A stretch of 64,000 bases of DNA from Deltaproteobacteria bacterium (lineage in GTDB: Bacteria; Desulfobacterota; BSN033; UBA1163): the NCBI GenBank assembly GCA_016874935.1, contig VGSS01000001.1, forward strand, positions 21,823-85,822, written 5' to 3'. Numbering within the stretch: position 1 is the first letter of the stretch; each line of letters opens with the position of its first letter. Made by a program: the position numbers and the translations under genes. A model generated the notes under the pieces. That model ran no database searches. It saw nothing but the letters and a program-made list of their open reading frames with translations, and had not been told where the DNA came from. Of this stretch, positions 19,555 to 54,840 are shown in pieces.

Positions 19555-19656
19555 CTTCTAAACCCCATTCCCCGCTTGTCATGCTGAACTTGTTTCAGCA
19601 TCTCATGAGACCCTGAACCGAGTTCAGGGTGACAACTTTTTAATCTTTTTGATGTC

Positions 19657-21484: not shown

Positions 21485-21489
21485 CGTTC

Positions 21490-22557: not shown

Positions 22558-22615
22558 AAAAAACTATTAAATTCACCCATCGAAGTCAATACCACCAACT
22601 AAAAAAGGGGAAAAA

Positions 22616-22684
22616 GGGGACAGGCTACTTTTTGATTTTTTCTTTTGCAATTTTTCTTCACATTTAAAAAGTAGCCTGTCCCCT
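22616..22684. repeat. REP doublet (inverted pair of the same REP as at the RAYT gene)
   Basis: ggggacaggctactttt ... aaaagtagcctgtcccc. The right arm encodes the last residues KRGQATF and the stop codon of the downstream GT9 gene. Confidence 0.7.
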
Positions 22685-23740: not shown

Positions 23741-23910
23741 TACGAAAACATTATCCCATTCCCGTTTAATTTTCAATAGGAAAAACAATGAGATGCCCTA
23801 TCCCCTCGCCCCCTTTTTGCTGAAGCCCTGCTAATAGGCAGGTAGGTTGGAGGGGATTTAAAGAAGTTATTTTTTATGTAACACAGAAATAGATGTTGTT
23901 TAGAATTGAG

Positions 23911-35394: not shown

Positions 35395-35548
35395 TCCCCT
35401 GCGGTGGAAACTGTGTCGTAATAGGGGAAACTAAAAAAATGTCATGCCGAACTTGTTTCGGCATCTAATCATTCCAAGAACTTACGAGACCCTGAAACAA
35501 GTTCAGGGTGACAAATTAGTAATTACGACACAGTCTCGTGGGGAGAGG
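35395..35548. repeat. MITE-like palindromic element, family R2, copy a
   Basis: Terminal inverted repeats ggaaactgtgtcgtaatagggg / agtaattacgacacagtctcgtgggg. Internal hairpins tgtcatgccgaacttgtttcggcatc and gaccctgaaacaagttcagggtgaca. Confidence 0.7.
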
Positions 35549-35569
35549 GAGGACGATGAGGAACGCCAG

Positions 35570-35971
35570 ATGAAATTCGTATCCGATGGAGGCTGTTTTG
35601 TGTGCGGCGAAAAGAATCCGCACGGATTAAAAATTAAGTTTCAGGTCGACCGGGATAAACAGAACATCCACACCACCTTCACTGTTGAGCCAACCTATCA
35701 GGGCTGGGATGGAATCGTTCACGGAGGAATCATCTGCACCCTCTTAGATGAGGCTATGGCCAATCTGGTTTATGAATTGGGCATGAATGCAATTGCGGCG
35801 TCCCTGGAGGTCAGATTCAAAAAACCGGCTCCAACCCTTCAACCTCTTATGGTCTATGGAGAAATCACGGAGGTGCATAAGAAATTGGTTAAGGCAAAGG
35901 CAAGCGTCACGAGGGAGGATGGAACGGTATTGGCCACGGGAATCTCCACCTTTGTCAGGCAGAGTCCGTAA
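35570..35971 (+). CDS. PaaI/4HBT-family hotdog thioesterase
   Basis: GIVHGGIICTLLDEAMA motif. True start at MKFVSDGG. The ORF-track N-terminal extension is read through repeat R2-a. Confidence 0.75.
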   Translation: MKFVSDGGCFVCGEKNPHGLKIKFQVDRDKQNIHTTFTVEPTYQGWDGIVHGGIICTLLDEAMANLVYELGMNAIAASLEVRFKKPAPTLQPLMVYGEITEVHKKLVKAKASVTREDGTVLATGISTFVRQSP

Positions 35972-40982: not shown

Positions 40983-41077
40983 TAAAAATCCGTATGTCCC
41001 CTTTTATATAGACAACGAAAGGATGGATAAAGTTCCGGGAAAATTCCCCAAGAAAATATATTCGACTAATTATTTCC

Positions 41078-41262
41078 TCCCCCCTTGAGACTGTGTCGTA
41101 AAGGGAAAAACAGAGAAAAATGTCACGCTGAACCTTGTGCTGAACTTAATTCAGTATTGTTTCAGCATCTAATAGAATCCAATACTTACGAGACCCTGAA
41201 ATAAATTCAGGGTGACCAAATAATAATTACGACACAGTCCCCTTGTGGGGGGGATTAAGGTG
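41078..41262. repeat. MITE-like palindromic element, family R2, copy b (with an extra nested hairpin module)
   Basis: Terminal inverted repeats cccccttgagactgtgtcgtaa / attacgacacagtccccttgtggggg. Internal gctgaac/gttcagc and gaccctgaaataaattcagggtgac hairpins. Confidence 0.7.
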
Positions 41263-41272
41263 GGGGGATGAA

Positions 41273-42220
41273 TCAGAACCTTTCCTCTTTTAAAAATTTT
41301 AGCAGTTTGATCAACTTCTGGTCCCGCTCTTTCAAAACATCTGCAATATTCTTCGAGGTATAGTCATAAAACCCTCTTCCTGACTTGACTCCGAAATATC
41401 CTTTCTTCACCAACTGGCTCAGGGTTTTAGGACTTCTCTCTTTTGAGACCAGATGGATGGACGGGTTTCTCTCAAAGGCGAGGGCCAGATCCAGCCCGGT
41501 ATAGTCATAGCGTTGAACCACTCCAACGACAGGGATTCTGATTCCGAGACTGCCCTTCACTGCCCTGTCGATCTCCTCCGCTGTGGCATATCCTCCATCC
41601 AGGAGGAAGAAGATCTCCCTTGCCATGGCCCTCTGAAGGCGATTGACAATATATCCAGGAATGAACTTCTTCATCACGACCGGCGTCTTACCCAATTTCA
41701 GGAAGATTTCTTTCACTCTTTTGATTGTCACCTCGGATGTCTTAGGCCCCCTGACCAGATCGACCAGAGGGATGAGGTGGGGCGGAGCATACCAGTGGCA
41801 GATCAACATCTTTTCGGGACGGATTTTTTTTGTCAGCCGAAAGATATTGAGATAGGAAGTATTGCTGGTGAAGATCGTCCGCTCAGGGCAGAGGCGATTC
41901 AGGGTCTGAAAAAGTTCTTTCTTCGCTTTCGGATTTTCGGATATTGCCTCAACAACCAGGTCAGCCTTCTGCGCCACATCGAGGGAAGTGGAGGGATGGA
42001 TTCGACCCAAAATCTTTGGAATCGATCTCGCCTCGATCATCTTCGCATTTTTCAGAGTCCGAAGATTGGCTTGAATCAGCTTGAGACTTTTTCCGAGAAT
42101 GTCGTCATGAACATCCACCAGATCGACTTCATACCCGCCCTGTGCAAAAACCAGTCCAATCGAGTGGCCCATGGTCCCCGCACCGACAACCAACACCCTT
42201 CTGATCCGATCAATAGTCAT
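41273..42220 (-). CDS. 3-hydroxyacyl-CoA / 3-hydroxybutyryl-CoA dehydrogenase family protein
   Basis: VLVVGAGTMGHSIGLVFAQGGYEV NAD-binding motif and the C-terminal 3HCDH domain pattern. Confidence 0.8.
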   Translation of the reverse strand: MTIDRIRRVLVVGAGTMGHSIGLVFAQGGYEVDLVDVHDDILGKSLKLIQANLRTLKNAKMIEARSIPKILGRIHPSTSLDVAQKADLVVEAISENPKAKKELFQTLNRLCPERTIFTSNTSYLNIFRLTKKIRPEKMLICHWYAPPHLIPLVDLVRGPKTSEVTIKRVKEIFLKLGKTPVVMKKFIPGYIVNRLQRAMAREIFFLLDGGYATAEEIDRAVKGSLGIRIPVVGVVQRYDYTGLDLALAFERNPSIHLVSKERSPKTLSQLVKKGYFGVKSGRGFYDYTSKNIADVLKERDQKLIKLLKFLKEERF

Positions 42221-42224
42221 TACT

Positions 42225-42400
42225 TAGAAAATAAAAGTCTAACGGTAAAGGTAACGATACCCGTTTCGTTAATAAAAGGCTACGTTTATCGTAATTTAAT
42301 TCTTTACACGTAACCGTAACCGGAAGTCGATGCGGGCCTCCTAACCCTAACCGTGACCTACGGACCATTTTCATGGTTCGTGAGTGGCCTAACGGCCATG
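42225..42400. repeat. Intergenic repeat family R4, copy b; begins immediately upstream of the 3-HADH start codon
   Basis: aaaataaaagtctaacggtaaaggtaacgatacccgtttcgttaataaaaggctacgtttatcgtaat..cgtaaccgtaaccgg; near-identical to 59540-59695. Confidence 0.65.
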
Positions 42401-42543
42401 TGCAATTACTTTCCCCATTATGTTTCTCTCAAATACTAACCAAAGATATCTGAAATATCCCCTCACCCCCTCCTTCTCCCCTGGAGGGCATATGCGCTAA
42501 CTTTGCTCTCCCCCCTCTTTCAAGGGAAGGAACTTACTTAACT

Positions 42544-42698
42544 CCTCCCCCTTCAGAGACTGTGTCGTAATAAGGGAATTGATAAAAATGTCATCCTGAA
42601 CTTGTTTCAGGATCTAATTAATTCAACCAATTGCGAGACCCTGAAATAAATTCAGGGTGACAAAATAGTAATTACGACACAGCCTCTCAAGGGGGAGG
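42544..42698. repeat. MITE-like palindromic element, family R2, copy c
   Basis: Terminal inverted repeats ccccttcagagactgtgtcgtaata / tagtaattacgacacagcctctcaaggggg. Hairpins tgtcatcctgaacttgtttcaggatc and gaccctgaaataaattcagggtgaca. Confidence 0.75.
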
Positions 42699-42750
42699 TT
42701 GGGAGGGGGATGGGATTGCAGCTCCTGAACTACCAACCAAATCTTCTCCC

Positions 42751-43086
42751 TTACCGATTCCATCTCCTGCAAAATTTCGTTGTTCCAGAATCGGAGAACG
42801 CGAAAACCAGCCGCCTGTAGTTTTTGTGTACGATTCTCATCATATACTGCCCGCTGTCCATGTTGCCCCCATCCACCTCAATGACCATTCTGTTTTCCAG
42901 GCAGACAAAATCGAGGATGTAATCACCAAATGGATGCTGACGGCGAAATTTCAAACCGGAAATCTGACGACCTCGCAGAAGATGCCACAAAACCTTTTCC
43001 GCGTCAGACATGTTGCTACGTAACACCCGCTGTAGTTTGCCCGAAGGTATCTTCTTGTTTGTCTGGCCGATCACAATCTCCCCCAT
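42751..43086 (-). pseudogene. DUF559 (Vsr/PD-(D/E)xK-like endonuclease-domain) gene, with an apparent -1 frameshift in a homopolymer
   Basis: N-terminal part ...AEKVLWHLLRGRQISGLKFRRQHPFGDYILDFVCLENRMVIEVDGG is in frame. The conserved continuation QHGQRAVYDENRTQKLQAAGFRVLRFWNNEILQEMESV is in the adjacent frame. The switch is at the C5 run at 42866-42870 (G5 on the coding strand; G6 would restore the frame). Confidence 0.65.
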
Positions 43087-43099
43087 CCCCTCCCCACTC

Positions 43100-43275
43100 C
43101 TCCCCTTGAAGAGACTGTGTCGTGATTACTATTTTGTCATCCTGAACTTGGTTCAGGATCTCGTAACTATTTAATTCTATTAGATGCCGAAACAATACTG
43201 AATTAAGTTCAGCACAAGGTTCGGCATGACAATTTTTATAATTTCCCCTATTACGACACAGCCTTGAAGGGGAGG
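43100..43275. repeat. MITE-like palindromic element, family R2, copy d
   Basis: Terminal inverted repeats ccccttgaagagactgtgtcgt / acgacacagccttgaagggg. Internal tgtcatcctgaacttggttcaggatc plus gccgaa/ttcggc hairpins. Confidence 0.7.
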
Positions 43276-43285
43276 GAATATTAAG

Positions 43286-43852
43286 TTAGCGCTTAAGCCC
43301 CAGTGGGGAGAGGGGGCCAAAGATCTTTAAATACTTCTTCGCCTTCTCATAAGCCTCAACCCACTGTTCTCTGGACCGCCTCATCGCCTCCTCGTCCAGT
43401 TGCTTGACAACCTTGCCCGGAATCCCGAGAACGAGCGACCCTTCGGGAACCTTCATCCCAGGAGGCACAACACTTCCGCTCCCGATGACCGAATTCTTCC
43501 CCACCTCTGCTCCGTCCAGCACAATGGCTCCGATTCCAACAACCGCCCCTTCCCTGACAATACATCCGTGGAGGATGACCCCGTGACTGATCAATACGTC
43601 CCGCTCAATGATGACTGGCCGGCCCGTCGGAGACTCGATCAAAACTTTATCGAGAATGACTGAACGCTCTCCCACAACGATTCGATCGCTATCCGCCCTC
43701 AAAAGCGCAAAGGGCCAGATGCTCACCTCTTTCTTTAGGATGATCTCTCCGATCAGCCTCGCCGAGGGATCGATGAATACGGTTTCATCAAATTGGGGAG
43801 ATTTTCCTTCAAAAGGAGTGATTGGATCAAAGTTGATTAAATGGGATGACAT
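43286..43852 (-). CDS. Gamma-carbonic-anhydrase-family / hexapeptide-repeat protein (PaaY/YrdA-like)
   Basis: Left-handed beta-helix hexapeptide repeats with the His ligand pattern (…VLISHGVILHGCIV…). Confidence 0.75.
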   Translation of the reverse strand: MSSHLINFDPITPFEGKSPQFDETVFIDPSARLIGEIILKKEVSIWPFALLRADSDRIVVGERSVILDKVLIESPTGRPVIIERDVLISHGVILHGCIVREGAVVGIGAIVLDGAEVGKNSVIGSGSVVPPGMKVPEGSLVLGIPGKVVKQLDEEAMRRSREQWVEAYEKAKKYLKIFGPLSPLGLKR

Positions 43853-43888
43853 TGGCTTGCTCCTTCGAGTGAGAAATCGTTCGCTATT

Positions 43889-45079
43889 TTATTCCCGTTC
43901 AAAGATGGCTGCAATGCCCAGTCCGCCGCCGCCGCAGATCGATTCGAGGCCGAATCGACTGCCCCGCCGTTTCATCTCATGAAGGAGGGTAACCAGCACC
44001 CTCGTTCCAGTGCAGGCAATGGGATGGCCAAGTGAGATGCCGGAGCCGTTTACATTGATCCTGAGATAGTCCCTCCCGGAAAGGTTCAACAGCTTCAGAT
44101 CTGCCAGAACCTGTGCGGCGAAAGCCTCCTGAATTTCGATTAAATCCATCTGATCGATCTTCAACCCTGTCCTCTCCAGGACTTTCTTGACAGCGAGGTC
44201 CACTGCCCGATAGGTGTATCGTGGGTCCACACCCGCAACGGCAAACTCCCTGATTGAGGCCAGAGGCTTCAACCCCAATGCCTCAGATTTCTCTTCAGTC
44301 GTGATGACGCAGACTGCAGCACCATCGTTTTCGGAGGAGGAATTCCCTGCCGTGCAGACCCCTCCTAAGACGGGTTGAAGTCTCGATAGCTGCTCAAAGG
44401 TCGTATCCTGCCTTGGCGTCTCATCCCGGTCAAATAACATCACATCTTTTTTCTCTTGAGGGATGGGAACAGCCACGATCTCCTCCTTAAACCTGCTTGA
44501 TTCCATGGCATCGCATGCCTTCCGGTGGCTCTCTAAAGCCCAGCGGTCGCAATCCTCCCTTGAAATCCCCTCCTCCTTTGCCGCTGTTTCTGCCCAGGAC
44601 ATCATCGTTGGCAGGACTCCATATCTCTCTTCAGGCTGGGACATCACCCTTGCCCGTTGAATCCGGTCATAGAGTGGAATGCCCCACCGGGAAAGGTCCC
44701 CATGACCTTTCGGCATTCCCTTTTTGCCGCCGATCCCCCATTTGATTTCACCCGGAAGGTAGAACTCCGCACTGCTCATGCTCTCCACGCCGCCTGCCAC
44801 CACAATCTCCGCATGGCCCGACTGGACAGCCATGGCTGCAGAGCAGATCACATCCAGTCCGGTGCAACAGCGCCGGTCCAGTGTGATTCCGGGAATCGAT
44901 TCCGGCCATCCTGCTTTGAGAAGCGACATCCGGGCGATATTCACATACTCTCCATTCTGGTAGGCCTGACCCAGGATGACCTCGTCAACCTGACCCGGAT
45001 CCAATCCGGCTCTTCTGACAACTTCATTCAGGACCAGGGCTCCCAGATCATAAGCAGGAATGTCTTTCAACATTCCCAT
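43889..45079 (-). CDS. Acetyl-CoA C-acyltransferase (thiolase)
   Basis: Thiolase N- and C-terminal domain motifs (…RRCCTGLDVICSAAMAV…, …NVNGSGISLGHPIACTGTR…, CGGGGLG). Confidence 0.9.
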   Translation of the reverse strand: MGMLKDIPAYDLGALVLNEVVRRAGLDPGQVDEVILGQAYQNGEYVNIARMSLLKAGWPESIPGITLDRRCCTGLDVICSAAMAVQSGHAEIVVAGGVESMSSAEFYLPGEIKWGIGGKKGMPKGHGDLSRWGIPLYDRIQRARVMSQPEERYGVLPTMMSWAETAAKEEGISREDCDRWALESHRKACDAMESSRFKEEIVAVPIPQEKKDVMLFDRDETPRQDTTFEQLSRLQPVLGGVCTAGNSSSENDGAAVCVITTEEKSEALGLKPLASIREFAVAGVDPRYTYRAVDLAVKKVLERTGLKIDQMDLIEIQEAFAAQVLADLKLLNLSGRDYLRINVNGSGISLGHPIACTGTRVLVTLLHEMKRRGSRFGLESICGGGGLGIAAIFERE

Positions 45080-45148
45080 ATACCTTCCGATCGGGGTGCG
45101 AACCGCACTGACGATGACTGCTTTTTTCAGAGGATCCTCCTTTAGAGT

Positions 45149-47008
45149 TTATTCTGAACGATGCCAGAACTTCTGAAGAAGAATGACCGCGGTCAGAAGT
45201 CCAAGACCGACCAGATCGGTCCATAGTCCTGGGTTAATGAGGCAGATGGCTCCGGCGACGAGCATCGCCCTTTCCAACAAGGTTGCTTCTTTCAATAACC
45301 ATCCCATCAATCCGGCGGAGAGAAGCACCACACCGATCGATGCGGAAACGATGGTCGTTACAATGCTGGTGGGAGAGCCGATGAGCAACAGGGAAGGACC
45401 GTAGACGAACATGAAGGGAACGATGAACCCCGTTGCGCCCGCTTTCATTGCGGCCAGACCTGTCTTCCAGATATTCGACCCGCTGATGCCTGCGGCCGCA
45501 TAGACTGCCATGGCAACCGGTGGCGTAATCGCGGAGATGATGGCGAAATAGAAGACAAAGAGATGGGCCGCAATCACCGGCACACCCAATTTGATCAAGG
45601 CAGGAATGAGCAGGGCCGCCTGAACAATATAGGCCGCTGTCGTGGGAAGTCCCATACCGAGAATAATCCCCGCAATCATCGTAAAGATGAGAGCAGGAGC
45701 AAGGGAGTCGCCAGCGATGAAAAGGATCAGGCTGGTAAATTTAAGTCCCAACCCTGTCAGGTTAATCACACCCACTACAATCCCTGCGCAGGCGCAGGCA
45801 GCGGCAACAGGAAGCATATTCCTTGCCCCAAGCTCAAGGGCTTCCAGGATCTTCCTCAACCCCATGCGGGTCTCTGTCCTCAGGAGAGAAACAACCAGTG
45901 TAGCAACGATGGCATAGATGCAGGCATACATCGGCGTATACCCTGCCAGCATGAAGAAGATAATTACAATCAGGGGAACGAAGAGATGGCCTTTCGTGAC
46001 AATGACCCAGTTCAGGACCGGTCTCTCCGACTTGGGGATGCCCAGTAATCCCGTTTTGCTTGCTTCAAAATGGATGGCCATAAAAAGGGCAAGATAATAA
46101 AGAAGAGCCGGGATCAAAGCATGTTTACATATTTGGAGGTAAGAAATCCCCGTATATTCAGCGATGACAAATGCGGCCGCGCCCATGACCGGTGGCATGA
46201 TCTGCCCTCCGGTAGAAGCTGTTGCTTCTACGGCAGCGGCAAAATCATGTTTGAACCCCGTTCTTTTCATCAGGGGAATGGTCAACCAGCCATCGACCAT
46301 CACATTGGCCACCGCACTTCCGGAGATCGTTCCGAAGAGAGAGCTCGATACCACAGAGATCTTCCCCGGCCCTCCCTTTGCGCCGCCTACCAGAGAGGTG
46401 GCAAAGTCCATAAAAAATTTCCCTGTGCCTGACTGCTCTAAAAAAGCGCCGAAGATGACAAAAAGGATCACATAGGTGGCAGAAACTCCGAGCGGGATGC
46501 CAAAAATCCCCTCCGTGGTTAAATAGAGCTGGTCAATCAGGGTCTCAATCGTAAAACCCGTATGGCGCATCAATCCCGGCAGGTAATTTCCGAAAAGGGC
46601 ATAAAGGAGAAATACCGATGCGGTAATGGGCAGGGCCAGCCCGATCGTCCTTCTCGCCGCCTCAAGCAGGATCAAAGTCAAAACTATACCCATGGTGAGA
46701 TCCCATGCGCTGACAGGATGGACATATGGATAGCGTGTTACGATATATTCATAATTGAGAAAGATGTAGCCCAGAGACAAGAGGATCAGAAGAATGAGGA
46801 TGAGGTTGCAAAATATCTTTCCATTCTTCTGTTTTTCTCCGCTGGTGATGCCCGCCAGAACGATCAGAACAAGGGTGAAGAGGAGATGGATGGAACGGTG
46901 CATCATTGCCTCCGGGGCGCCAAAGGCTCCTGCATAGAGATGGTAGGCTGACATGAGAACAGCGATTACCCACGTCACCTTTTTCACAATGCGAATAAAA
47001 TGTTCCAT
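45149..47008 (-). CDS. TRAP transporter fused permease (TAXI-type 4TM/12TM fusion)
   Basis: 619-aa polytopic membrane protein. Strong similarity to its paralogue at 49428..51290. Confidence 0.85.
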   Translation of the reverse strand: MEHFIRIVKKVTWVIAVLMSAYHLYAGAFGAPEAMMHRSIHLLFTLVLIVLAGITSGEKQKNGKIFCNLILILLILLSLGYIFLNYEYIVTRYPYVHPVSAWDLTMGIVLTLILLEAARRTIGLALPITASVFLLYALFGNYLPGLMRHTGFTIETLIDQLYLTTEGIFGIPLGVSATYVILFVIFGAFLEQSGTGKFFMDFATSLVGGAKGGPGKISVVSSSLFGTISGSAVANVMVDGWLTIPLMKRTGFKHDFAAAVEATASTGGQIMPPVMGAAAFVIAEYTGISYLQICKHALIPALLYYLALFMAIHFEASKTGLLGIPKSERPVLNWVIVTKGHLFVPLIVIIFFMLAGYTPMYACIYAIVATLVVSLLRTETRMGLRKILEALELGARNMLPVAAACACAGIVVGVINLTGLGLKFTSLILFIAGDSLAPALIFTMIAGIILGMGLPTTAAYIVQAALLIPALIKLGVPVIAAHLFVFYFAIISAITPPVAMAVYAAAGISGSNIWKTGLAAMKAGATGFIVPFMFVYGPSLLLIGSPTSIVTTIVSASIGVVLLSAGLMGWLLKEATLLERAMLVAGAICLINPGLWTDLVGLGLLTAVILLQKFWHRSE

Positions 47009-47097
47009 GTTTTTCCCCTATAGAAAAGGCGGGAATGGCCCCATTCCCGCCTCATACGGTTTTGATACAACGCAGTGGAAAAATGACCGGAGGCCCC

Positions 47098-48057
47098 TTA
47101 TTTAATGACCCCTTTTTCTTTATAATATTTTAGGGCACCGGGATGAAAAGGAACGCCAATGTCAAGGGCAAGGTCTTTGACGGTTACCCCTTTCATGTCT
47201 TTGACGACATCGGCCAATCGTTCTACATTCTCAGAAAGGACCTTCGTGATATTATAAACCAGTGGCTCTGGCAATTTTGCGCTGACCACCAGGTGGGTGA
47301 AGTATCCTACGGTGATCGTATCGTAATTGACACCCGGGTAAGTTCCTGAAGGGATGATCCGTTTCAGGTAGCCCACATTCATCTTCTGGAGTTCCCTGAT
47401 CTTATCCTCAGGAAGGGAGAGAAGCCTGATCTTCTTGGTGGTTGCCAGATCCAATATGGAAGAAGCAGGAATAGTTGTTCCCAGGAGATACCCCTGTGCA
47501 TGGCCGTCCTTCATCAGGGAGACGGCATCCGCATAACTTACATGGTTCACCTTTGTCATGTCCTTGTAGGAGAGGCCATGAATCTGGAGAACCTGTTGAG
47601 CCAGCAGTTCCCCTGTATGGCCTTTGGGTCCCGGACAGATTCCTTTTCCCTTAAGGTCTGCAGGCGATTTGATCCCCGAGTCTTCGAGGACGACCATCTG
47701 AAAATATTGAGGGTAAAGGTTGGCTAATTGCATAACATTCTTAGTGGGTGCCTTGAACGGTTCTCTTCCTGCAACCCCATCCACGCTGGAGGACGAATTT
47801 CCAAAACCGATATCCGCCTTGCCCTCCTGGACACCAACCACATTGGCCATGCCCCCACCCGGTGAAACGGAAACCGTTGTTCCCGGAATATTCTTCTGGA
47901 TCAACTCCGCAATGGCGCCACCCAGTGGAACCCACGATCCTCCCATTGGTCCGGTCATCATCTTCAAATCAACCTTCTCCTGGCCAATGGCCAAAAAGGG
48001 AGACATCAAAAAGACAATCATTCCAAACCCTAAACAAACTATTCTCTTCATCTTCAT
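47098..48057 (-). CDS. TAXI-family TRAP transporter solute-binding protein
   Basis: Signal peptide; TAXI/Imp family pattern (…GGGMANVVGVQEGKADIGFGNSSS…). Confidence 0.8.
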   Translation of the reverse strand: MKMKRIVCLGFGMIVFLMSPFLAIGQEKVDLKMMTGPMGGSWVPLGGAIAELIQKNIPGTTVSVSPGGGMANVVGVQEGKADIGFGNSSSSVDGVAGREPFKAPTKNVMQLANLYPQYFQMVVLEDSGIKSPADLKGKGICPGPKGHTGELLAQQVLQIHGLSYKDMTKVNHVSYADAVSLMKDGHAQGYLLGTTIPASSILDLATTKKIRLLSLPEDKIRELQKMNVGYLKRIIPSGTYPGVNYDTITVGYFTHLVVSAKLPEPLVYNITKVLSENVERLADVVKDMKGVTVKDLALDIGVPFHPGALKYYKEKGVIK

Positions 48058-48282
48058 TGCCAGCCTCCTTTATCTTGGATTGGATGTCCATCCAATAACA
48101 ATAAATTGCCCTTCATGTCAAGAAGTTTCAAAGAGATTTCTAAAAAGAAGAAATCTCTGATTACACCGATTAGAATTCGATTGCACAGATTAGAAATGCA
48201 TGGATGACAATCTTGTAAAAAGTCCCAATCTGTCACCCTGAACTTGTTTCAGGGTCTCTGTTTTATATAGCTCTCTCAATGT

Positions 48283-49377
48283 TTAAGGAACGATCACTAC
48301 TTTTATGGGGTCTTCTCCTTCGATCTCTCCTCCTGCTACTCTGATTGCTTTTTCAGCTTCTTCGAGAGGAAACCGGTGGGTTACCATCTTCTCAAGAGGA
48401 TATTTCCTTGATTCGGCCAGGCGGATCGCCGGGAGGACCGACTGAAAATCATGGCTGAAGGCGCCCTGCACTCTCACCTCCTTGTAAACGATCTTATCGA
48501 GGACTAAAGGAATTTCTCGATCCATACCATAAAGTCCGGGGAGGATGACTGTCCCTTTCTTCTTCACCAGATCGATGGCTGTGATCGCTCCTTTCGGGCT
48601 TCCAGTCACATCCATGACAAGGTCAGCCATCCTTCCTTCTGCGATCTCTCTCACCCTTTCGACCGGATCACCCTTCTCGATATCGATCATCTCATCCGCT
48701 CCAAAGGTCTTTGCCAGTTCGAATCGAATCCTATCCTTTGTCATTCCAGTCACGATCACTTTCTCTGCGCCCGCCTCCCTGGCTATGATCACGCCTGCAA
48801 GCCCCTGCTGTCCCGGCCCCTCAATCACAATGATACCCCCTTGCCTTAGTCCCCCGATCACCTGAACCCACCGAATCGCATTCCCAAGGACCGCACAGAC
48901 CAGAATTCCGACTTCAGGTAGAAGGTCCTGTGAGACCTTATGAACCATCGCCCTTGGAGGAAGATAGAGATATTCGCTATAAGCGCCCCAGAGGTGCGGC
49001 GGATCTTTACAGGAGATCATCGACCCGTAGGTGAACATCTTCTCACAGTGGATATAATCTCCCTGCTTGCAATGGAAACATTCTCCGCATCCAAAGGCAT
49101 ACTCAACGATCGCCCGGTCCCCCTCTTTCAGGTTCCATCTTTGAGATGCCTCCTTCCCGACCTCGACGACCGTCCCGAAAATCTCATGGCCCATAATAAT
49201 GGGATAGGGTCGAGGAGCACGTGTGGCCTTTCCCCTGTACATGCCCACATCCGAACCACAGACTCCAACCATCTCCACCTTGAGGAGTCCCTCTTCCGTT
49301 CCGATCGAAGGAAGTGGAAACTCCCTCAATACCATTCTTCCGGGTGCTTCGAGAACCATTGCTCTGGAGGTCTTCAT
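48283..49377 (-). CDS. Zinc-dependent alcohol/polyol dehydrogenase (MDR family)
   Basis: GVCGSDVGMYRG, GHEIFG and C..C..C structural-zinc motifs; GxGxxG in the Rossmann region. Confidence 0.8.
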   Translation of the reverse strand: MKTSRAMVLEAPGRMVLREFPLPSIGTEEGLLKVEMVGVCGSDVGMYRGKATRAPRPYPIIMGHEIFGTVVEVGKEASQRWNLKEGDRAIVEYAFGCGECFHCKQGDYIHCEKMFTYGSMISCKDPPHLWGAYSEYLYLPPRAMVHKVSQDLLPEVGILVCAVLGNAIRWVQVIGGLRQGGIIVIEGPGQQGLAGVIIAREAGAEKVIVTGMTKDRIRFELAKTFGADEMIDIEKGDPVERVREIAEGRMADLVMDVTGSPKGAITAIDLVKKKGTVILPGLYGMDREIPLVLDKIVYKEVRVQGAFSHDFQSVLPAIRLAESRKYPLEKMVTHRFPLEEAEKAIRVAGGEIEGEDPIKVVIVP

Positions 49378-49427
49378 CGCTTCTCGTCCATTAAAATTTT
49401 TTCTTAACTGCTAATTCGAAAAATGTT

Positions 49428-51290
49428 TCATCCTTTCTTGTTTCTCATCCTTTGCAGGAGAAAGATGGCAACGAGAATACCCCCTCCGAGAATATCTGAG
49501 ACAATGCCCGGTTTGATCAGGGTAAAAGCCGCAATGAAGAGCAGTAGCCTTGAGACCCAGTTCAATTTGCTGATCATATGGCCCTGAATGGCTGAGCCAA
49601 GAGCCAGGCATCCGATGATGGCTGTCAGGAATGCGGAGAGAATATGAAGCAGGTCTCCTTTCCAGATGAGAACAGGATAATAGACGAAGAGAAAGGGAAT
49701 GAAATAGGCAATGGCCGCAAGTCTCATGGCTAAAAATGCGGTGGCAAAGGGAGGAGATCCGGCGATTCCTGCTCCGGCATAGGCGGTCAGGGCCTCCGGA
49801 GGTGTGATGGTCGAGAGGCAGGCATAATAAAAAACGAACAGGTGAGCGGCTAAAGGATCAACGCCCAACTTGATCAGAACCGGTCCTCCTAAGATCACCG
49901 TGAGGATGTAGGCGGCAGAAGTGGTCAAACCAAGGCCCATGATCATTGAGGTGAACATAACGGCGATCAACGCTAAGATGAGTTCTCCCTTACATGCTTC
50001 GATCACAAGGGTGGAGAACTTCAATCCAAGGCCAGTCTGCGTAACCACGCCGATGATGATTCCAGCGCAGGCGCAGGCTAAAGCCACCTCCCTCGATATC
50101 ATCGCCCCTTGTTTAAGGGCTGAAATAAATTTTTTAAAACCGATCCTTGTCTCCCTCCTGAAAAAACTGATTCCCATGACCGCCCAGATCGACCAGAACC
50201 CTGCCTTCATAGGCGAATACCCGATGACAAGGAGGTAAACGAGAAGAAAAGCAGGCAGGACGAGATGTCCCTTCTGGAAAATCACCTTTTTCAGCCTGGG
50301 CAACTGCTCCTTCGGGATTCCTTTTAGGTCCAGTTTTAATGCCTCGAGATGAACCATATAAAAGAGGGCGAAGTAGTAGAGGATTGCAGGGATCATGGCC
50401 CCAAGACAGACCCGGATATAGGGAATTCCAAGCATATCCGCCATGATAAAAGCCGCGGCTCCCATCACCGGCGGCATGAACTGGCCTCCGGTCGATGCCA
50501 CCGCCTCCACAGCCCCTGCAAACTTAGGCTCATATCCGATCTTCTTCATCAGAGGGATCGTGAAGGAGCCCGTGCTCACCACATTCGCCACCGAACTTCC
50601 TGAGATCGTCCCGAAGAAACCGCTGCTGACAATCGCCATTTTGGCAGGGCCTCCCCTCCAGTTTCCGGTGAGGGCATTAGCAAAATCGATGAAAAACTCC
50701 CCTGTCCCGGAAGCAACGAGAAAGGCTGCAAAGAGGACGAAGATGAAGATGAAACTTGCGGAGACGCCGAGTGGAACGGTGAAGAGCCCCTCTGTAGTGA
50801 CAAACTGATAGGCTATAAAACTTTCCAGATCCACGCCCTTATGCCCCCACAATCCCGGGATTCGATCCCCAAGAAGGGCATAAAGGATCCCCACAAGGGC
50901 GATGATGGGAAGCGACCACCCCAGAGACCTTCTCGTTGCTTCGAGGACGAGAAGGATGAGGATCCCGCCCATGATCAGATCGTATGTTGTCGTGGCACCC
51001 CCTCTCATGACGATTTCTCTGAATTGCAAAACGAGATAGACAACGCTTGCCAGACTGAGGAAGAATAGAAAAAAATCCCACAGGGTGGAGAGTTTCGACT
51101 GGGCGACCTTCTCCGGGTCCTTTCCTCCCATCGTCGGAAAAGTCAGAAAGATGAGGAGGAGGGCGAAGAGGAGATGGATGGAACGCTGGACAATGGCGGA
51201 GAAGAGTCCGAATTGGGCCGTATAGAGATGGAAGATTGACATCCCAATGGCGGTTAGGGTGATGAGGTGACTTTTTCGAATAAGTCCCAT
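49428..51290 (-). CDS. TRAP transporter fused permease (TAXI-type), paralogue 2
   Basis: 620-aa polytopic protein with conserved blocks shared with 45149..47008. Confidence 0.85.
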   Translation of the reverse strand: MGLIRKSHLITLTAIGMSIFHLYTAQFGLFSAIVQRSIHLLFALLLIFLTFPTMGGKDPEKVAQSKLSTLWDFFLFFLSLASVVYLVLQFREIVMRGGATTTYDLIMGGILILLVLEATRRSLGWSLPIIALVGILYALLGDRIPGLWGHKGVDLESFIAYQFVTTEGLFTVPLGVSASFIFIFVLFAAFLVASGTGEFFIDFANALTGNWRGGPAKMAIVSSGFFGTISGSSVANVVSTGSFTIPLMKKIGYEPKFAGAVEAVASTGGQFMPPVMGAAAFIMADMLGIPYIRVCLGAMIPAILYYFALFYMVHLEALKLDLKGIPKEQLPRLKKVIFQKGHLVLPAFLLVYLLVIGYSPMKAGFWSIWAVMGISFFRRETRIGFKKFISALKQGAMISREVALACACAGIIIGVVTQTGLGLKFSTLVIEACKGELILALIAVMFTSMIMGLGLTTSAAYILTVILGGPVLIKLGVDPLAAHLFVFYYACLSTITPPEALTAYAGAGIAGSPPFATAFLAMRLAAIAYFIPFLFVYYPVLIWKGDLLHILSAFLTAIIGCLALGSAIQGHMISKLNWVSRLLLFIAAFTLIKPGIVSDILGGGILVAIFLLQRMRNKKG

Positions 51291-51787
51291 AGAACCATCC
51301 TCTTCTTCAGTTTGATCTCTACGATCTCGAACGGTTCGATCCCATCCGAGAGATGAAAGGTTTCACCTTTGAAGATGAGCTTATGATTGGCCAGATCTCT
51401 CGACCCCATCATGAACTGAATCTTCTTCCTCGCCTCATTGATATCCCTTAACTCTCCCACACCATCCGCTCGGAGATGGAAATTGGGATAGGCAAATCCT
51501 CCGCCATTGAGATGGGATTGAAAGGTCATATCCCTCAGAACAATTTTCGCTCTGTGTTCGATCTCATAATTCTCCTGGAGAAAGGCCCGGTCATAGGAGT
51601 GTAAAAACCGGATGCTGAACCTGTCCCCTGAAGAGACCGGCAGTGAGAGAAAGGCGTCGGGCCTGCCCTCGCTTGAAACCTCCAACCGATAGGCAGGCCA
51701 CAACGCCCAGAATAGGAGTCCGATCAGGCTCACAACGACCGCAATCTTAGAAATAACTGGTGTAGTGAATCTCACGCTTCTTTCCAT
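51254..51787 (-). CDS. DUF1850-like small membrane-anchored protein commonly co-encoded with TAXI-TRAP permeases
   Basis: N-terminal TM helix, about 175 aa, immediately upstream of the TRAP permease. Family call is from memory. Confidence 0.5.
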   Translation of the reverse strand: MERSVRFTTPVISKIAVVVSLIGLLFWALWPAYRLEVSSEGRPDAFLSLPVSSGDRFSIRFLHSYDRAFLQENYEIEHRAKIVLRDMTFQSHLNGGGFAYPNFHLRADGVGELRDINEARKKIQFMMGSRDLANHKLIFKGETFHLSDGIEPFEIVEIKLKKRMVLWDLFEKVTSSP

Positions 51788-51794
51788 TGAATTT

Positions 51795-51950
51795 GAGTAT
51801 TGTCATTCCCGCCCCGATTTCCATCGGGTAAACTCCAGCGGGAATCCAGACGTCGTCCCTGCGGAAGCAGGGATCTATGACAAAGAAACTGGGTTCCTGT
51901 TTGCACAGGAAACCCTGGATTCCGGATCAAGTCCGGAATGACAAACCGGT
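51795..51950. repeat. Intergenic palindromic repeat, family R6
   Basis: tgtcattcccgc...gcgggaatccagacgtcgtccctgcggaagcagggatc ... ggattccggatcaagtccggaatgaca. Confidence 0.6.
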
Positions 51951-51988
51951 TAAGATTTATGTCGTTATGTATAGGTACGTTATGGTTG

Positions 51989-52035
51989 TGACAAATTACT
52001 GATCACTGATTACTGACTACTGATCACTGATTATT
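51989..52035. repeat. Heptanucleotide tandem repeat ACTGAYY, 5 copies
   Basis: actgatc actgatt actgact actgatc actgatt; lies between the TAXI-2 stop and the DUF1850 start. Confidence 0.65.
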
Positions 52036-52987
52036 TGATAACGCCTCTTTCCTTAAAAAACCGAATCGCGCCCGGGTGAAGCGGAATCGACATCCCTTTG
52101 GTGGCATTGGCCAATGTGATCTCCTTAAACATGGCATGGATGGCATCCAGTTCCGCCTTATGATCGAAGACCGCCTTTACCATCTCATAAGCAAGGTCTC
52201 CGGTGCAATCCTTATGGACGATGAAGAAACCCATCCAGCCCAGAGTATTATGCTCCTTCGCCATTCCCGGATAGGTCCCTGTAGGGATCACCCTTGGAAA
52301 GTAAGCAGGAAATTTCTTATTGATCCTTCCCCCTACTTCAGGCTCAATATCGAGAAACCTGATCTTCTTATAACGGGTCAATTCGACCAGGGTGGGCGCG
52401 GGCGTCCCAAGGGTGACAATTCCCACCTCAATATTTCCATCCTTCATGGCGGCCGTGGCCTCGGTATGGGAGAGGAACTGCTCCTGGATATCGTCATACG
52501 TGATCCCATACTCCTTCAAGACATACCTTGCCATCACCTCTGTCCCGCTCCCGGGGGGTCCCACCGCCACCTTGGGGTTTTTCCCTTTGATGTCGGAAAT
52601 GGTCTTGATCGGAGATTTCTCTTCCACATAGATCTGGATGTCGATGGGGTAGGTTGAAAAGAGCCCCCGGATCTCCTCCACTTTGCCGTCTTTGAACATC
52701 TCCTGCCCATTGAAGGCATAGAAGGCGATGTCCGGCATGGTGAGAGCCAGATCCTGTTTATTCTTCGAAATCGCCCTGATGTTTTCAATCGAGGCTCCGG
52801 AAGGAATGGCCGTAGATGTCACCCCCTTGATATGTTTATTGATAATTCCCGAAACTCCTCCTCCTAAAAGATACCATGTCCCTCCGGTGCTTGCCGTACC
52901 GATGACCAACCGCTTCTCCTGGGCCTGAACAGCGCTCATCGTCACGGTCAATAAAAATACCGCTATTAAAAAAATTGATCGTTTCAT
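52031..52987 (-). CDS. TAXI-family TRAP transporter solute-binding protein, paralogue 2
   Basis: Signal peptide; similar to 47098..48057. Confidence 0.8.
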   Translation of the reverse strand: MKRSIFLIAVFLLTVTMSAVQAQEKRLVIGTASTGGTWYLLGGGVSGIINKHIKGVTSTAIPSGASIENIRAISKNKQDLALTMPDIAFYAFNGQEMFKDGKVEEIRGLFSTYPIDIQIYVEEKSPIKTISDIKGKNPKVAVGPPGSGTEVMARYVLKEYGITYDDIQEQFLSHTEATAAMKDGNIEVGIVTLGTPAPTLVELTRYKKIRFLDIEPEVGGRINKKFPAYFPRVIPTGTYPGMAKEHNTLGWMGFFIVHKDCTGDLAYEMVKAVFDHKAELDAIHAMFKEITLANATKGMSIPLHPGAIRFFKERGVIK

Positions 52988-54519
52988 CGTCCCACTCCTT
53001 TCTTTAAATACCTCTCCCTCAATACGGTTTTAAGAACCTTCCCCGAAGGATTTCTCGGAAGGCTCTCCACAAACGCCACAGACTTAGGCTTCTTGTAACT
53101 GGCAAGATGACTTTTACAGTATTCGATCACCTCCTCCTCTGTCATCGTCTCCCCTCTCTTCAAAACGATGACCGCCCTGACCGATTCTCCCCAGAGGGGA
53201 TCGGGGACTCCGACGACGGCCGCATCCTCAATCTTAGGGTGGCTGTAAAGGATCTCTTCGATCTCACGGGGATAGATATTCTCTCCGCCGCTGACGATCA
53301 TATCCTTCTTCCGGTCAACGATATAGATGAATCCCTCCTCATCCATCCGGGCCAGATCCCCCGTGTGAAGCCATCCGCCCCGGAGGGTCTCCCGTGTGGC
53401 CTCTTTATCTTTATAGTATCCCTTCATCACATTGGGACCACGGCAGATCAACTCCCCGACTTCCTCCACTGGGAGATCCCGATCCTGATCATCCACGATT
53501 CTCACTTCCAGAAAGGGAACAGCCGGCCCCACACATTCCCTTTTCTTCAGAGAGTCCTTCGCCTTGAGGATGGCAATCGAGGGCGTGGCTTCGGTGCACC
53601 CATAGACATCATAAATACCGGAGAGATTGGGAAAGAGTTTCCCCAGCCTCTCTTTTGTTTCATTCGGAAGGATGGAGGCCCCTGTGGTGCATTTGGTGAT
53701 TGAACGGGTGTCATATTTCCCCTCAGGAAGGGAGAGCATCAAATGGTAGGCCGAAGGGGCGCCTGAGATGACCGTCCCCTTCTCCTTTTCAATGATCTCC
53801 ATCACCCTTTCCGGATCAAAATGCCTGATGAGGACGCTGGTCCCGGCCAGCGCCACACGGGTTAGGAAATGGTTATTGAGAGCCGCCGTATGATAGAGGG
53901 GGCCGATGACAATTGAAGTTTCACCCTCCTTCTCCTCCCTTCCCAGAATGGTATTGAAAAGATTCCAGAGGAGATTCTCATGGGTGAGAAGAGCCCCTTT
54001 CGGTTTTCCTGTGGTGCCGGAGGTATACATCAACTGGCATTCCTCCTTTTCAGAGAGGGGGACATCCGGCTCCTGAGAAAGGGAGTCTTTTAAAAAAGTT
54101 TCGTAGTTCAAAATGGAAGAAGAAGCGGACTCCCCGATGGAAAAATAGAACTCCACTTTTTTAAGCCTGGGCCGGATCTTCTCAACAAGCTCTGAAAACT
54201 CCTCTCCATAGATAAAAAAACGGGCGTCGGAATGGTCGAGGATATAGAAAACCTCCTCGGCGGTAAACCGGAAATTGATCGGCGTGAAGACGCCGCCTGA
54301 CTTGGCCGAGGCAAAGAGAATCTCGACAAGGGGGATCGAATTAAAGAGAAGGACAGCGATTTTTTCACCCTTCTCCAGGCCGAGACGGAGCAATCCATTG
54401 GCCAGTTGATTGACGCGACGATTAAACTCCTGATACATCATCCGCTCCCCTTCACAGATGAGCGCGATCCTTTGAGGGAACTTACGGGCAGTAAAAGTAA
54501 GGATTTGTCCGACATCCAT
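52984..54519 (-). CDS. AMP-dependent acyl-CoA synthetase/ligase
   Basis: AMP-binding motif YTSGTTGKPKG, the TGD motif and a C-terminal domain. Confidence 0.85.
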   Translation of the reverse strand: MDVGQILTFTARKFPQRIALICEGERMMYQEFNRRVNQLANGLLRLGLEKGEKIAVLLFNSIPLVEILFASAKSGGVFTPINFRFTAEEVFYILDHSDARFFIYGEEFSELVEKIRPRLKKVEFYFSIGESASSSILNYETFLKDSLSQEPDVPLSEKEECQLMYTSGTTGKPKGALLTHENLLWNLFNTILGREEKEGETSIVIGPLYHTAALNNHFLTRVALAGTSVLIRHFDPERVMEIIEKEKGTVISGAPSAYHLMLSLPEGKYDTRSITKCTTGASILPNETKERLGKLFPNLSGIYDVYGCTEATPSIAILKAKDSLKKRECVGPAVPFLEVRIVDDQDRDLPVEEVGELICRGPNVMKGYYKDKEATRETLRGGWLHTGDLARMDEEGFIYIVDRKKDMIVSGGENIYPREIEEILYSHPKIEDAAVVGVPDPLWGESVRAVIVLKRGETMTEEEVIEYCKSHLASYKKPKSVAFVESLPRNPSGKVLKTVLRERYLKKGVGR

Positions 54520-54840
54520 GGGAATCTTCCTCTAACCCATGCGACTCTACAAAAAATAACTTCATTCGTCAAGCAAGAAAAGATTTAAAAAGTAATGCGT
54601 CAGTTATGGAAGGTTACATAATCCCTGAAAAAATTTATTACCCCCGATAGGCGGGACATTCCTGTCCCGCCTATGTTGGAAGCGGGGTTAGAAAACCCCG
54701 CCTATCCATTCCACCTATTAATAAAATGAAATTACCTCCATGACTGAGGGATTACTTTAAAAACGATTTGATTTTTTGTGGAAAGAGGCTTATAATGGTG
54801 AATAAAAATAAGAAACCTTGGAAAAGGAGGTGATCGGTAG

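Follow-up and report, generated by a model that had tools for sequence, protein, structure and literature searches.

This locus raises two linked questions: what a gene of the DUF1850 family is doing between the binding protein and the permease of a TAXI-TRAP transporter, and whether the CoA enzymes encoded around it belong with that transporter. TAXI is the least understood branch of the TRAP transporters, "the neglected group" of a 2018 review (PMC5812351), and structural and mechanistic work on it assumes a binding protein and one fused permease. TAXI papers and that review describe only these two components and no third gene (PMC11574862, PMC13040137, PMC5812351). Searches for "DUF1850" and "PF08905" in a full-text collection of about 8 million papers, which mostly leaves out subscription journals, returned zero matches, in agreement with the preliminary description of this DNA, which calls the part played by DUF1850 in TAXI systems undescribed.

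The stretch analysed (64,000 nucleotides, hereafter the window) comes from an uncultured member of the Thermodesulfobacteriota, related to the Syntrophaceae, from a freshwater lake. Positions 43889-54519 contain eight genes, each on the minus strand, as are all features described below unless stated otherwise. In the direction of transcription, they encode an acyl-CoA synthetase, TAXI binding protein 2, the DUF1850 protein, permease 2, a Zn-alcohol dehydrogenase, binding protein 1, permease 1 and a thiolase. The genes and coordinates of the preliminary description were recovered, the latter matching the ends of the open reading frames, whereas a recent duplication, a PaaI thioesterase and a complete β-oxidation set were not. 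A sigma-70-like promoter candidate, by consensus match only, precedes the synthetase start by 25 nt (54544..54572; TTGACG, 17 nt, TAGAGT). Scanning the cluster for promoter and terminator consensus sequences gave counts no higher than those in shuffled sequence, and no known RNA family scored near its gathering cut-off in the intergenic regions. There are long gaps of 243 nt, 225 nt and, with an insertion, 1.07 kb inside the cluster, which may separate transcripts. Tandem TAXI pairs and TAXI genes beside CoA enzymes are common, and the locus is otherwise ordinary.

The first five genes form the conserved core module. The AMP-forming acyl-CoA synthetase (52984..54519) matches PF00501 (E 7e-85), PF13193 and the NCBIfam model PRK06187 (528 bits, cut-off 476), and its gene runs 4 nt into that of binding protein 2. 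Binding protein 2 (52031..52987) matches TIGR02122 with 294 bits (cut-off 84) and PF16868 with E 1e-77; among solved structures it is closest to 1US4, a TAXI protein of Thermus (E 7e-46), and the solved structures most like the two binding proteins of the cluster are all TAXI proteins. Both carry predicted N-terminal signal peptides, read by eye from the sequence as MKRSIFLIAVFLLTVTMSAVQA/QE and MKMKRIVCLGFGMIVFLMSPFLAIG/QE. The spacer that follows (51788..52030), made of stacked hairpins resembling REP/MITE repeats, has an RNA fold of -79 kcal/mol (z -3.96 against shuffles) and is 243 nt long, in contrast to the 2-19 nt found at this place in most relatives. Next come the DUF1850 gene (51254..51787), which shares its final 37 nt with the beginning of the permease gene, and permease 2 (49428..51290; 620 aa), a fused Q-M protein of the 4TM/12TM type that matches TIGR02123 with 706 bits (cut-off 321) and DctM with E 1e-97. 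Only positions 4-50 of the 181 in the DUF3394 model are matched by permease 2, which therefore lacks the "claw" domain. The Zn-dependent medium-chain dehydrogenase (48283..49377) has the ADH_N and ADH_zinc_N domains, with Zn-ligand motifs visible in the sequence, and its nearest structure is Thermotoga TM0436 (1VJ0).

The association of these enzymes with the transporter was examined in 27 genome loci retrieved through DUF1850, which represent three families of Thermodesulfobacteriota. An orthologous synthetase immediately precedes binding protein 2 in about 20 of the 27, and permease 2 is followed by the Zn-dehydrogenase in about 16, the module from synthetase through binding protein 2, DUF1850 and permease 2 to dehydrogenase being kept in Syntrophaceae, Desulfarculaceae and Desulfatitalea genomes. 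Given this synteny, the linkage of enzymes and transporter goes beyond mere proximity, and it fits the uptake of an organic acid followed by its CoA activation. For syntrophic and sulfate-reducing Deltaproteobacteria, the recurring module also offers a handle on a new TAXI substrate.

Set 1 has a different arrangement. Binding protein 1 (47098..48057; TIGR02122 253 bits, cut-off 84; PF16868 E 1e-69) is preceded by the 225-nt gap, which contains a repeat hairpin and a TTGACA hexamer. Between it and the fused permease 1 (45149..47008; 619 aa; TIGR02123 692 bits, cut-off 321) there are 89 nt and no DUF1850 gene, so that DUF1850 accompanies the second set alone, as had been noted. Identity between the two sets is 30% for the binding proteins and 47% for the permeases, the latter falling into separate clades in a rough tree. 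These values rule out a recent tandem duplication and make the earlier term "duplicated" an overstatement; judged by their sequences, the two sets are old, anciently diverged paralogues. A second TAXI pair, again devoid of DUF1850, occurs in three of the 27 genome loci (L006, L007 and L011), where the core module is followed by set 1.

The thiolase (43889..45130; TIGR01930 374 bits, cut-off 241) retains the catalytic Cys, His and Cys. Translation probably begins at the CTG at 45130 rather than the ATG at 45079; the in-frame sequence upstream of the ATG encodes KKAVIVSAVRTPIGRY, a GGAGG is found 5 nt before the CTG, and the profile match begins at model position 16-19. Beyond it are a hexapeptide-repeat protein (43286..43852; Hexapep domain) resembling γ-carbonic anhydrase, PaaY and CaiE (149, 113 and 105 bits, all below the cut-offs), and a 3-hydroxyacyl-CoA dehydrogenase (41273..42220; 3HCDH_N and 3HCDH domains). 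Domain matches bear out both genes, which had been listed before. The 3-hydroxyacyl-CoA dehydrogenase is set off from the cluster by the 1.07-kb gap, which holds a repeat-flanked insertion; two metagenome contigs of the same population, L001 and L002, have only about 200 nt between this dehydrogenase gene and the γ-CA-like one. The PaaI thioesterase reported before the cluster is absent, the sole open reading frame between the flanking genes (42751-43086) being a DUF559 fragment inside the insertion. The nearest 4HBT/PaaI-like thioesterase (35444-35971, plus strand) is 5.3 kb beyond, with seven unrelated genes between, among them an ECF sigma/anti-sigma pair and genes for a LysM-NlpC/P60 protein, Sua5, a flavin reductase and an amidohydrolase. 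The thiolase, the γ-CA-like gene and the 3-hydroxyacyl-CoA dehydrogenase would go with set 1, and the contigs of relatives end before them.

Could the cluster instead be two unrelated TAXI transporters plus several enzymes on a common strand, and would set 1, the thiolase and the 3-hydroxyacyl-CoA dehydrogenase then act on another substrate or in another pathway? The low identity and distinct clades of the two sets would agree with this, as would the gap with hairpin and hexamer before binding protein 1, the rarity of the second set among related loci and the mobile insertion that parts the 3-hydroxyacyl-CoA dehydrogenase from the remaining genes. However, the order of core module and then set 1 recurs in the three loci named above, the strand is the same throughout, no convincing terminator lies between the genes, and related TAXI/DUF1850 modules (L030, L033) also have thiolases nearby. 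We regard such a division as a serious possibility, though clearly the less probable one.

The cluster is best read as a catabolic uptake island, with a hydroxy or oxo carboxylic acid as its probable substrate. Residues Q93 and E125 bind glutamate in GluP, the TAXI protein of Vibrio cholerae (PMC11574862). Binding protein 2 has M84 and I115 at the equivalent positions and binding protein 1 has N/Q, which speaks against glutamate as the substrate. In the pathway that we propose, a single carboxylic acid or a related pair, most probably of the hydroxy or oxo type, would be captured in the periplasm, imported by ion-gradient-driven TAXI-TRAP transport and converted to CoA thioesters; oxidation of the hydroxyl group and thiolytic cleavage would follow. 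Among the open reading frames scanned, which cover 16-64 kb of the window, there is neither an acyl-CoA dehydrogenase nor an enoyl-CoA hydratase, and this counts against the proposed pathway. The β-oxidation-like set described earlier is thus incomplete, comprising in the same scan only the synthetase, the 3-hydroxyacyl-CoA dehydrogenase and the thiolase. The earlier proposal of uptake with CoA-dependent catabolism is partly supported, the synteny of synthetase and dehydrogenase fitting uptake and CoA activation. No enzyme of the cluster reached an equivalog-level assignment in NCBIfam, every equivalog model for the Zn-dehydrogenase, the synthetase and the 3-hydroxyacyl-CoA dehydrogenase scoring below its cut-off.

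The DUF1850 protein itself has 177 residues, with a predicted membrane anchor and an all-β domain. Its assignment, made at first by reading the sequence, was upheld by the profile search: PF08905 is matched over positions 1-87 of 87 with 32.4 bits (gathering score 27; E 1.2e-7). It is a divergent member, the best E among 30 aligned relatives being 8e-25, and all 31 diverse members compared match PF08905. The family residues H63, S64, E72, G95 and H135, conserved in 96, 99, 80, 89 and 82% of 138 representatives, respectively, are all present. A hydrophobic 19-mer is found near the N-terminus in 88% of these representatives, flanked by a mean net charge of +3.4 towards the N-terminus and of -0.3 towards the C-terminus; the positive-inside rule is followed by 93%. 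DUF1850 is thus predicted to be a single-pass, N-in anchored protein with its β domain on the periplasmic side. The AlphaFold model, which is of good confidence (pLDDT 84), contains a helix at residues 11-28 followed by 12 strands, and structure searches found no solved relative of this domain. The best 150 of the 291 representative clusters are stand-alone proteins of 44-211 aa, with no fusion to a permease or a binding protein.

The census of DUF1850 and TAXI co-occurrence that the preliminary description had suggested reveals a close association. DUF1850 adjoins a TAXI permease in all 27 genome loci, in 4/4 distant metagenome loci and in 3/4 plasmid loci, and the order binding protein-DUF1850-permease is kept in the 27 genome loci wherever the contig permits. 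The four distant metagenome members, only about 20% identical to the DUF1850 of the window, occupy the same position, as do the plasmid members of the haloarchaea Natribaculum and Halobaculum and of the alphaproteobacterial Pseudosulfitobacter, where RefSeq annotates a 4-nt overlap of the DUF1850 and permease genes. The plasmids were queried with more typical DUF1850 members because a tblastn search with that of the window gave no match. Conversely, among 80 metagenome loci picked by permease similarity alone, 38 contain DUF1850, in the canonical order in 33 of these; in a few others it precedes the binding-protein gene or is found on the opposite strand. One orphan gene with no adjoining TAXI genes was found, on an Ilyobacter plasmid whose tandem TAXI pairs lack DUF1850. 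TAXI pairs without DUF1850 also include set 1, loci of Paracoccus and Pseudosulfitobacter, and the V. cholerae system VcGluPQM (PMC11574862). DUF1850-linked permeases do not make one clade in a rough tree. The neighbouring genes vary as well: CoA ligases and a dehydrogenase here, histidine-utilisation genes in Pseudosulfitobacter, a γ-glutamyltransferase in Natribaculum and acyl-CoA dehydrogenases in L033.

Taken as a whole, the data are best explained by a catabolic uptake island in which DUF1850 is an optional third subunit of the TAXI-TRAP transporter, a reading that we hold to be rather probable. The proposed role derives from gene order, predicted topology and predicted fold. As judged from its anatomy and distribution, DUF1850 would be synthesized in step with the permease, by means of overlapping or abutting reading frames, and would probably reside on the periplasmic face of the permease, where it may help the binding protein to dock or the complex to assemble or remain stable. 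An action on one particular substrate is unlikely, because the neighbouring enzymes differ so widely among DUF1850 loci, and since many TAXI pairs work without it, DUF1850 cannot be core to the transport mechanism.

Two other roles appear unlikely, to a similar degree. DUF1850 might be a periplasmic enzyme, or a secondary ligand- or metal-binding protein, that modifies, releases or pre-binds the substrate ahead of the TAXI binding protein. The H63-S64, E72, G95 and H135 positions, conserved in 80-99% of the representatives, are compatible with a small active or metal site instead of an interface, and the predicted orientation places the domain in the periplasm. Alternatively, DUF1850 might help to assemble or insert the permease, or regulate it, acting transiently or conditionally, being absent from the working complex and able to serve permeases elsewhere, including that of set 1. 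Its optional occurrence among closely related permeases, the Ilyobacter orphan and the few loci with a displaced or inverted gene would agree with such a function; however, DUF1850 lies directly before the permease in 33/38 metagenome and 27/27 genome loci, and a stoichiometric partner therefore fits this constant position better than a trans-acting factor. The optional-subunit reading can be extended, more speculatively and with odds that we place on the unfavourable side. DUF1850 would then mark a separate three-component class of TAXI transporters, ancient, widespread and common to Bacteria and Archaea, as a true stoichiometric permease subunit with an unsolved β-sandwich fold that is required for productive docking and is perhaps the functional counterpart, encoded by its own gene, of the DUF3394 "claw". 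Its His-Ser/Glu/His cluster would be a contact or cation site, and in genomes such as this one a single DUF1850 might serve a second TAXI permease that has no copy next to it. If about half of the permeases in this branch have a conserved, anchored periplasmic partner, reconstitutions, structures and heterologous expression without DUF1850 may miss part of the machine.

Both sets of the window score above the TIGR02122 and TIGR02123 cut-offs, with their genes side by side on the same strand. The known TAXI-TRAP systems (Thermus TTHA1157/1US4, V. cholerae GluP-GluQM and the o-phthalate TAXI of denitrifiers) likewise have adjoining TIGR02122 and fused TIGR02123 genes beside catabolic genes (PMC11574862, PMC13040137). 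The described systems are of two components, whereas set 2 has a third gene, DUF1850, in between. VcGluQM carries the DUF3394 "claw", unlike the permeases found here, and the glutamate-binding residues of VcGluP are not kept; the globular part of DUF3394 is absent from the DUF1850-linked permeases that were compared. The "claw" resembles DUF1850 in being a β-rich periplasmic domain on the TAXI membrane component, but it belongs to the permease chain, within the last periplasmic loop, whereas DUF1850 is a separate protein (PMC11574862). Homology between the two is unsupported, none of the 31 DUF1850 members matching DUF3394 at E <= 1. Short CoA-dependent catabolic modules for hydroxy or oxo acids contain a CoA ligase, a 3-hydroxyacyl-CoA dehydrogenase and a thiolase; all three enzyme types are present in this cluster too, which has in addition the Zn-dehydrogenase and the PaaY-like protein. 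An extra protein is also found in another TRAP transporter, where TatT is said to partner a DctP-type binding protein. As a TRAP-family transporter whose operon encodes an additional extracytoplasmic accessory protein, TPAT of Treponema pallidum (PMC5812351) provides a precedent; TatT is a TPR protein, whereas DUF1850 is predicted to be a membrane-anchored β-sandwich, unrelated in sequence and linked to TAXI.

All ten genes of the cluster (41273-54519) were identified with Pfam and NCBIfam models on the minus strand, and the ORF ends agree exactly with the coordinates given in the preliminary description. The cluster contains an AMP-forming acyl-CoA synthetase (52984-54519; PRK06187, 528 bits, cut-off 476), TAXI binding protein 2 (52031-52987; TIGR02122, 294 bits), the DUF1850 protein (51254-51787), the fused TRAP permease 2 (49428-51290; TIGR02123, 706 bits), a Zn-dependent dehydrogenase that reached no equivalog (48283-49377), TAXI binding protein 1 (47098-48057; TIGR02122, 253 bits), the fused TRAP permease 1 (45149-47008; TIGR02123, 692 bits), a thiolase (listed at 43889-45079; TIGR01930, 374 bits), a gamma-CA/PaaY-like hexapeptide protein for which every model stayed below cut-off (43286-43852) and, beyond a 1.07-kb gap, a 3-hydroxyacyl-CoA dehydrogenase (41273-42220). 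Read from the ATG at 45079, the thiolase ORF is missing ~17 residues at the beginning of the fold. Immediately beyond the permease 1 TAA stop (45079-45151, minus strand), this frame reads CTG-KKAVIVSAVRTPIGRY, with GGAGG 5 nt before the CTG at 45130; judging from the sequence, this rare codon is probably the start. The genes on either side, an ECF sigma/anti-sigma pair, a LysM-NlpC/P60 protein and Sua5 at one flank and PBP1A, a CoA-binding protein and phosphofructokinase at the other, are unrelated to the cluster. So is a polysaccharide/LPS biosynthesis block at 16038-23788 (GT4, GT2 and GT9 glycosyltransferases, a DegT aminotransferase and an epimerase/dehydratase), which is followed by a 1010-aa TPR protein. 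The DUF1850 protein, recorded at NCBI under a "Deltaproteobacteria bacterium" MAG, has exact matches on contigs in the JGI metagenome samples 3300020074 to 3300020603 (Lake Tanganyika, as we interpret them); the closest genomes are Thermodesulfobacteriota and Syntrophaceae MAGs.

The CoA enzymes had been described as a beta-oxidation-like set flanked by a PaaI thioesterase. The synthetase, the 3-hydroxyacyl-CoA dehydrogenase and the thiolase are present, and neither an acyl-CoA dehydrogenase nor an enoyl-CoA hydratase was found among the ORFs scanned at 16-64 kb of the window. No PaaI thioesterase adjoins the cluster: the ORF at 42751-43086 is a DUF559 (Vsr-like endonuclease) gene fragment enclosed by inverted copies of a 190-nt repeat, and the 4HBT thioesterase at 35444-35971 lies on the opposite strand, with seven unrelated genes between it and the cluster. 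The DUF559 fragment is an insertion polymorphism, since contigs of the same population (L001 and L002) lack the insertion (42220-43286) and have ~200 nt between the gamma-CA-like gene and the 3-hydroxyacyl-CoA dehydrogenase (15078-15281 in L001). The ~190-nt repeat, with copies at 41074-41265, 42536-42709 and 43087-43278, includes a 26-nt palindrome, GTCAYCCTGAAYTTGKTTCAGGRTCT, which occurs 8 times in the window (0 expected by chance), at 19578-19633, 35487-35512, 41191-41216, 42590-42661, 43136-43161 and 48232-48257. The repeats bearing it look like REP/MITE-like intergenic elements. Because one palindrome copy falls within the annotated ORF start of the 4HBT thioesterase, this gene probably starts further downstream.

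Their divergence marks the two TAXI sets as old paralogues instead of the duplicated modules first proposed: the binding proteins share 30% identity and the permeases 47%, and in a rough neighbour-joining tree each permease groups with its own orthologues from other genomes, in a clade separate from that of the other permease. A second TAXI pair also follows the core module in three related loci (L006, L007 and L011), where DUF1850 is absent from it each time and the gap between binding protein and permease is just 58-103 nt.

The core module was traced by pattern-scanning 185,579 species genomes with the DUF1850 alignment, which gave 27 loci whose ORFs were called and scored against the window's proteins. 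All 27 come from Thermodesulfobacteriota (Syntrophaceae, Desulfarculaceae and Desulfatitalea), the Desulfarculaceae including the isolates Desulfocarbo indianensis and Dethiosulfatarculus sandiegensis. Wherever the contig permits, binding protein 2 comes first, followed by DUF1850 and then permease 2; an orthologous synthetase lies immediately upstream in ~20 of the 27, and the Zn-dehydrogenase downstream in ~16. Both enzymes therefore belong with set 2, and this conservation is the strongest support for the earlier proposal of uptake coupled to CoA activation. In the Desulfarculaceae (L015-L026), a second, divergent AMP-binding CoA ligase is inserted between permease and Zn-dehydrogenase (e.g. 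L019, 8283-9866), and the two ligases per module may serve two related substrates or a dicarboxylate. Upstream, L019 also carries a DVU_1553-family ligase and an IclR regulator.

Regarding the substrate, VcGluP of Vibrio cholerae holds its amino acid with a Gln and a Glu (PMC11574862). At these sites binding protein 2 has M84 and I115 instead, and binding protein 1 has N and Q, so glutamate is an unlikely substrate for either. Without an acyl-CoA dehydrogenase or hydratase, the synthetase, 3-hydroxyacyl-CoA dehydrogenase and thiolase would suffice for a 3-hydroxy or 3-oxo acid. The Zn-dehydrogenase could oxidize a hydroxyl of either the free acid or its CoA ester. The acidic residue normally found in the cofactor loop is missing from that of this enzyme (VIVTGMTKDR), a hint that it uses NADP.

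A candidate sigma-70-like promoter is found immediately upstream of the synthetase, and no convincing terminator was seen between cluster genes. With its three long gaps, the cluster could be divided into up to three transcription units. Binding protein 2 and DUF1850 are separated by 243 nt (51788-52030) containing four stacked hairpins (z -3.96) and a tandem tcagtRatcagta motif; in most relatives this spacer is 2-19 nt. The 225-nt gap before binding protein 1 contains a hairpin and a TTGACA hexamer, and the 1.07-kb gap before the 3-hydroxyacyl-CoA dehydrogenase holds the insertion. Rfam gave no family match in any of the three. REP elements in the E. coli malEFG operon raise expression of the binding protein over that of the membrane subunits and, by analogy, the structured 243-nt spacer could favour binding protein 2 in the same way. 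Upstream of the candidate synthetase promoter, the divergent intergenic region contains a 61-nt double-hairpin palindrome (54646-54706; GATAGGCGGG...CCCGCCTATC), which could be an operator or another repeat. The window's cluster has no regulator gene; relatives have IclR or GntR genes, varying by locus (IclR in L019, GntR in L009).

The DUF1850 assignment, made initially from the sequence alone, is borne out by the PF08905 HMM (32.4 bits, gathering score 27). A confident AlphaFold model from a 19-sequence alignment (pLDDT 84, pTM 0.74) predicts one helix (residues 11-28) and, after it, twelve beta strands. An exhaustive HMMER search yielded 291 clusters at E <= 1e-3, all of short stand-alone proteins, and 138 representatives were analysed. 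An N-terminal hydrophobic 19-mer is present in 88% of them, with a mean net charge of +3.4 before and -0.3 after it; as 93% obey the positive-inside rule, the predicted domain should face the periplasm. The LWPA-YR junction is atypical as a signal-peptidase site, and the helix is accordingly read as an anchor. Conserved residues across the family are H63 (96%), S64 (99%), E72 (80%), G95 (89%) and H135 (82%). The final 37 nt of the gene overlap the start of permease 2, which has GAGGA 8 nt upstream. Among relatives, the overlap ranges from 4 to 37 nt, or else a gap of 8-18 nt separates the two genes, and RefSeq annotation gives 4-nt overlaps in haloarchaea and Pseudosulfitobacter.

The association with TAXI was counted in both directions. 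DUF1850 is TAXI-linked in 27 of 27 genome loci and in four distant metagenome members (L033, L034, L035 and one further contig; ~20% identical to the window's protein), whose TAXI neighbours were confirmed by phmmer. Three of four annotated plasmid loci are also linked (Natribaculum luteum, Halobaculum roseum and Pseudosulfitobacter pseudonitzschiae), the exception being an orphan DUF1850 in Ilyobacter polytropus. On that plasmid (NC_014633.1), the orphan (L040, 4435-4944) adjoins IclR and KDG-aldolase/kinase genes with no TAXI adjacent, and two tandem TAXI pairs without DUF1850 are found elsewhere (L036), an arrangement that may hint at action in trans. For the reverse count, 80 metagenome loci were picked by TAXI permease similarity alone and searched with the DUF1850 HMM; they were the top 80 among at least 582 matches and share 40-68% identity with permease 2. 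DUF1850 was present in 38: in 33 between binding protein and permease, in 3 before the binding protein and in 2 nearby on the opposite strand. Where upstream sequence sufficed, DUF1850 directly precedes the permease in ~31 of 69 loci (45%), a fraction that holds for this TAXI permease branch, not for all. Among plasmids, a TAXI permease occurs in 451 records and a recognisable DUF1850 in at least 50, a low-sensitivity lower bound; several TAXI pairs inspected have no DUF1850. The DUF1850-linked haloarchaeal permeases (L041, 4911-7646; L043, 4911-7649) are ~911 aa long; ~230 residues precede the DctM region, the match to which is split, and their extra sequence matched no Pfam family.

The enzymes beside DUF1850 loci comprise CoA ligases with a dehydrogenase, histidine-utilisation genes, gamma-glutamyltransferase, acyl-CoA dehydrogenases and a ROK kinase, and this diversity makes a substrate-specific enzyme unlikely. 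DUF1850 constantly precedes the permease, in overlapping frames, and has a predicted membrane anchor and periplasmic domain; these features suggest that it is most likely an optional third subunit of the TAXI transporter, or an accessory to it. Genome annotation pipelines already give the label "DUF1850 domain-containing protein", and its role had been called undescribed; consistently, neither "DUF1850" nor "PF08905" is mentioned in 8 million searchable full texts, a collection outside which most subscription-journal papers fall. As a TAXI catabolic cluster, the window's locus is ordinary. The possible novelty is a three-gene form of TAXI system, common and ancient, in which the third protein has no described role and a fold not yet solved.

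Recent TAXI papers and a 2018 review (PMC5812351) describe these systems as a binding protein plus a fused permease only. The V. cholerae permease VcGluQM has a globular DUF3394 "claw" (PMC11574862), whereas the DUF1850-linked permeases examined have none, and permease 1 of the window has neither claw nor DUF1850; DUF1850 could conceivably be a separately encoded counterpart of the claw. A precedent for an additional extracytoplasmic component in TRAP-family transporters is provided by the Treponema TPAT systems (PMC5812351).
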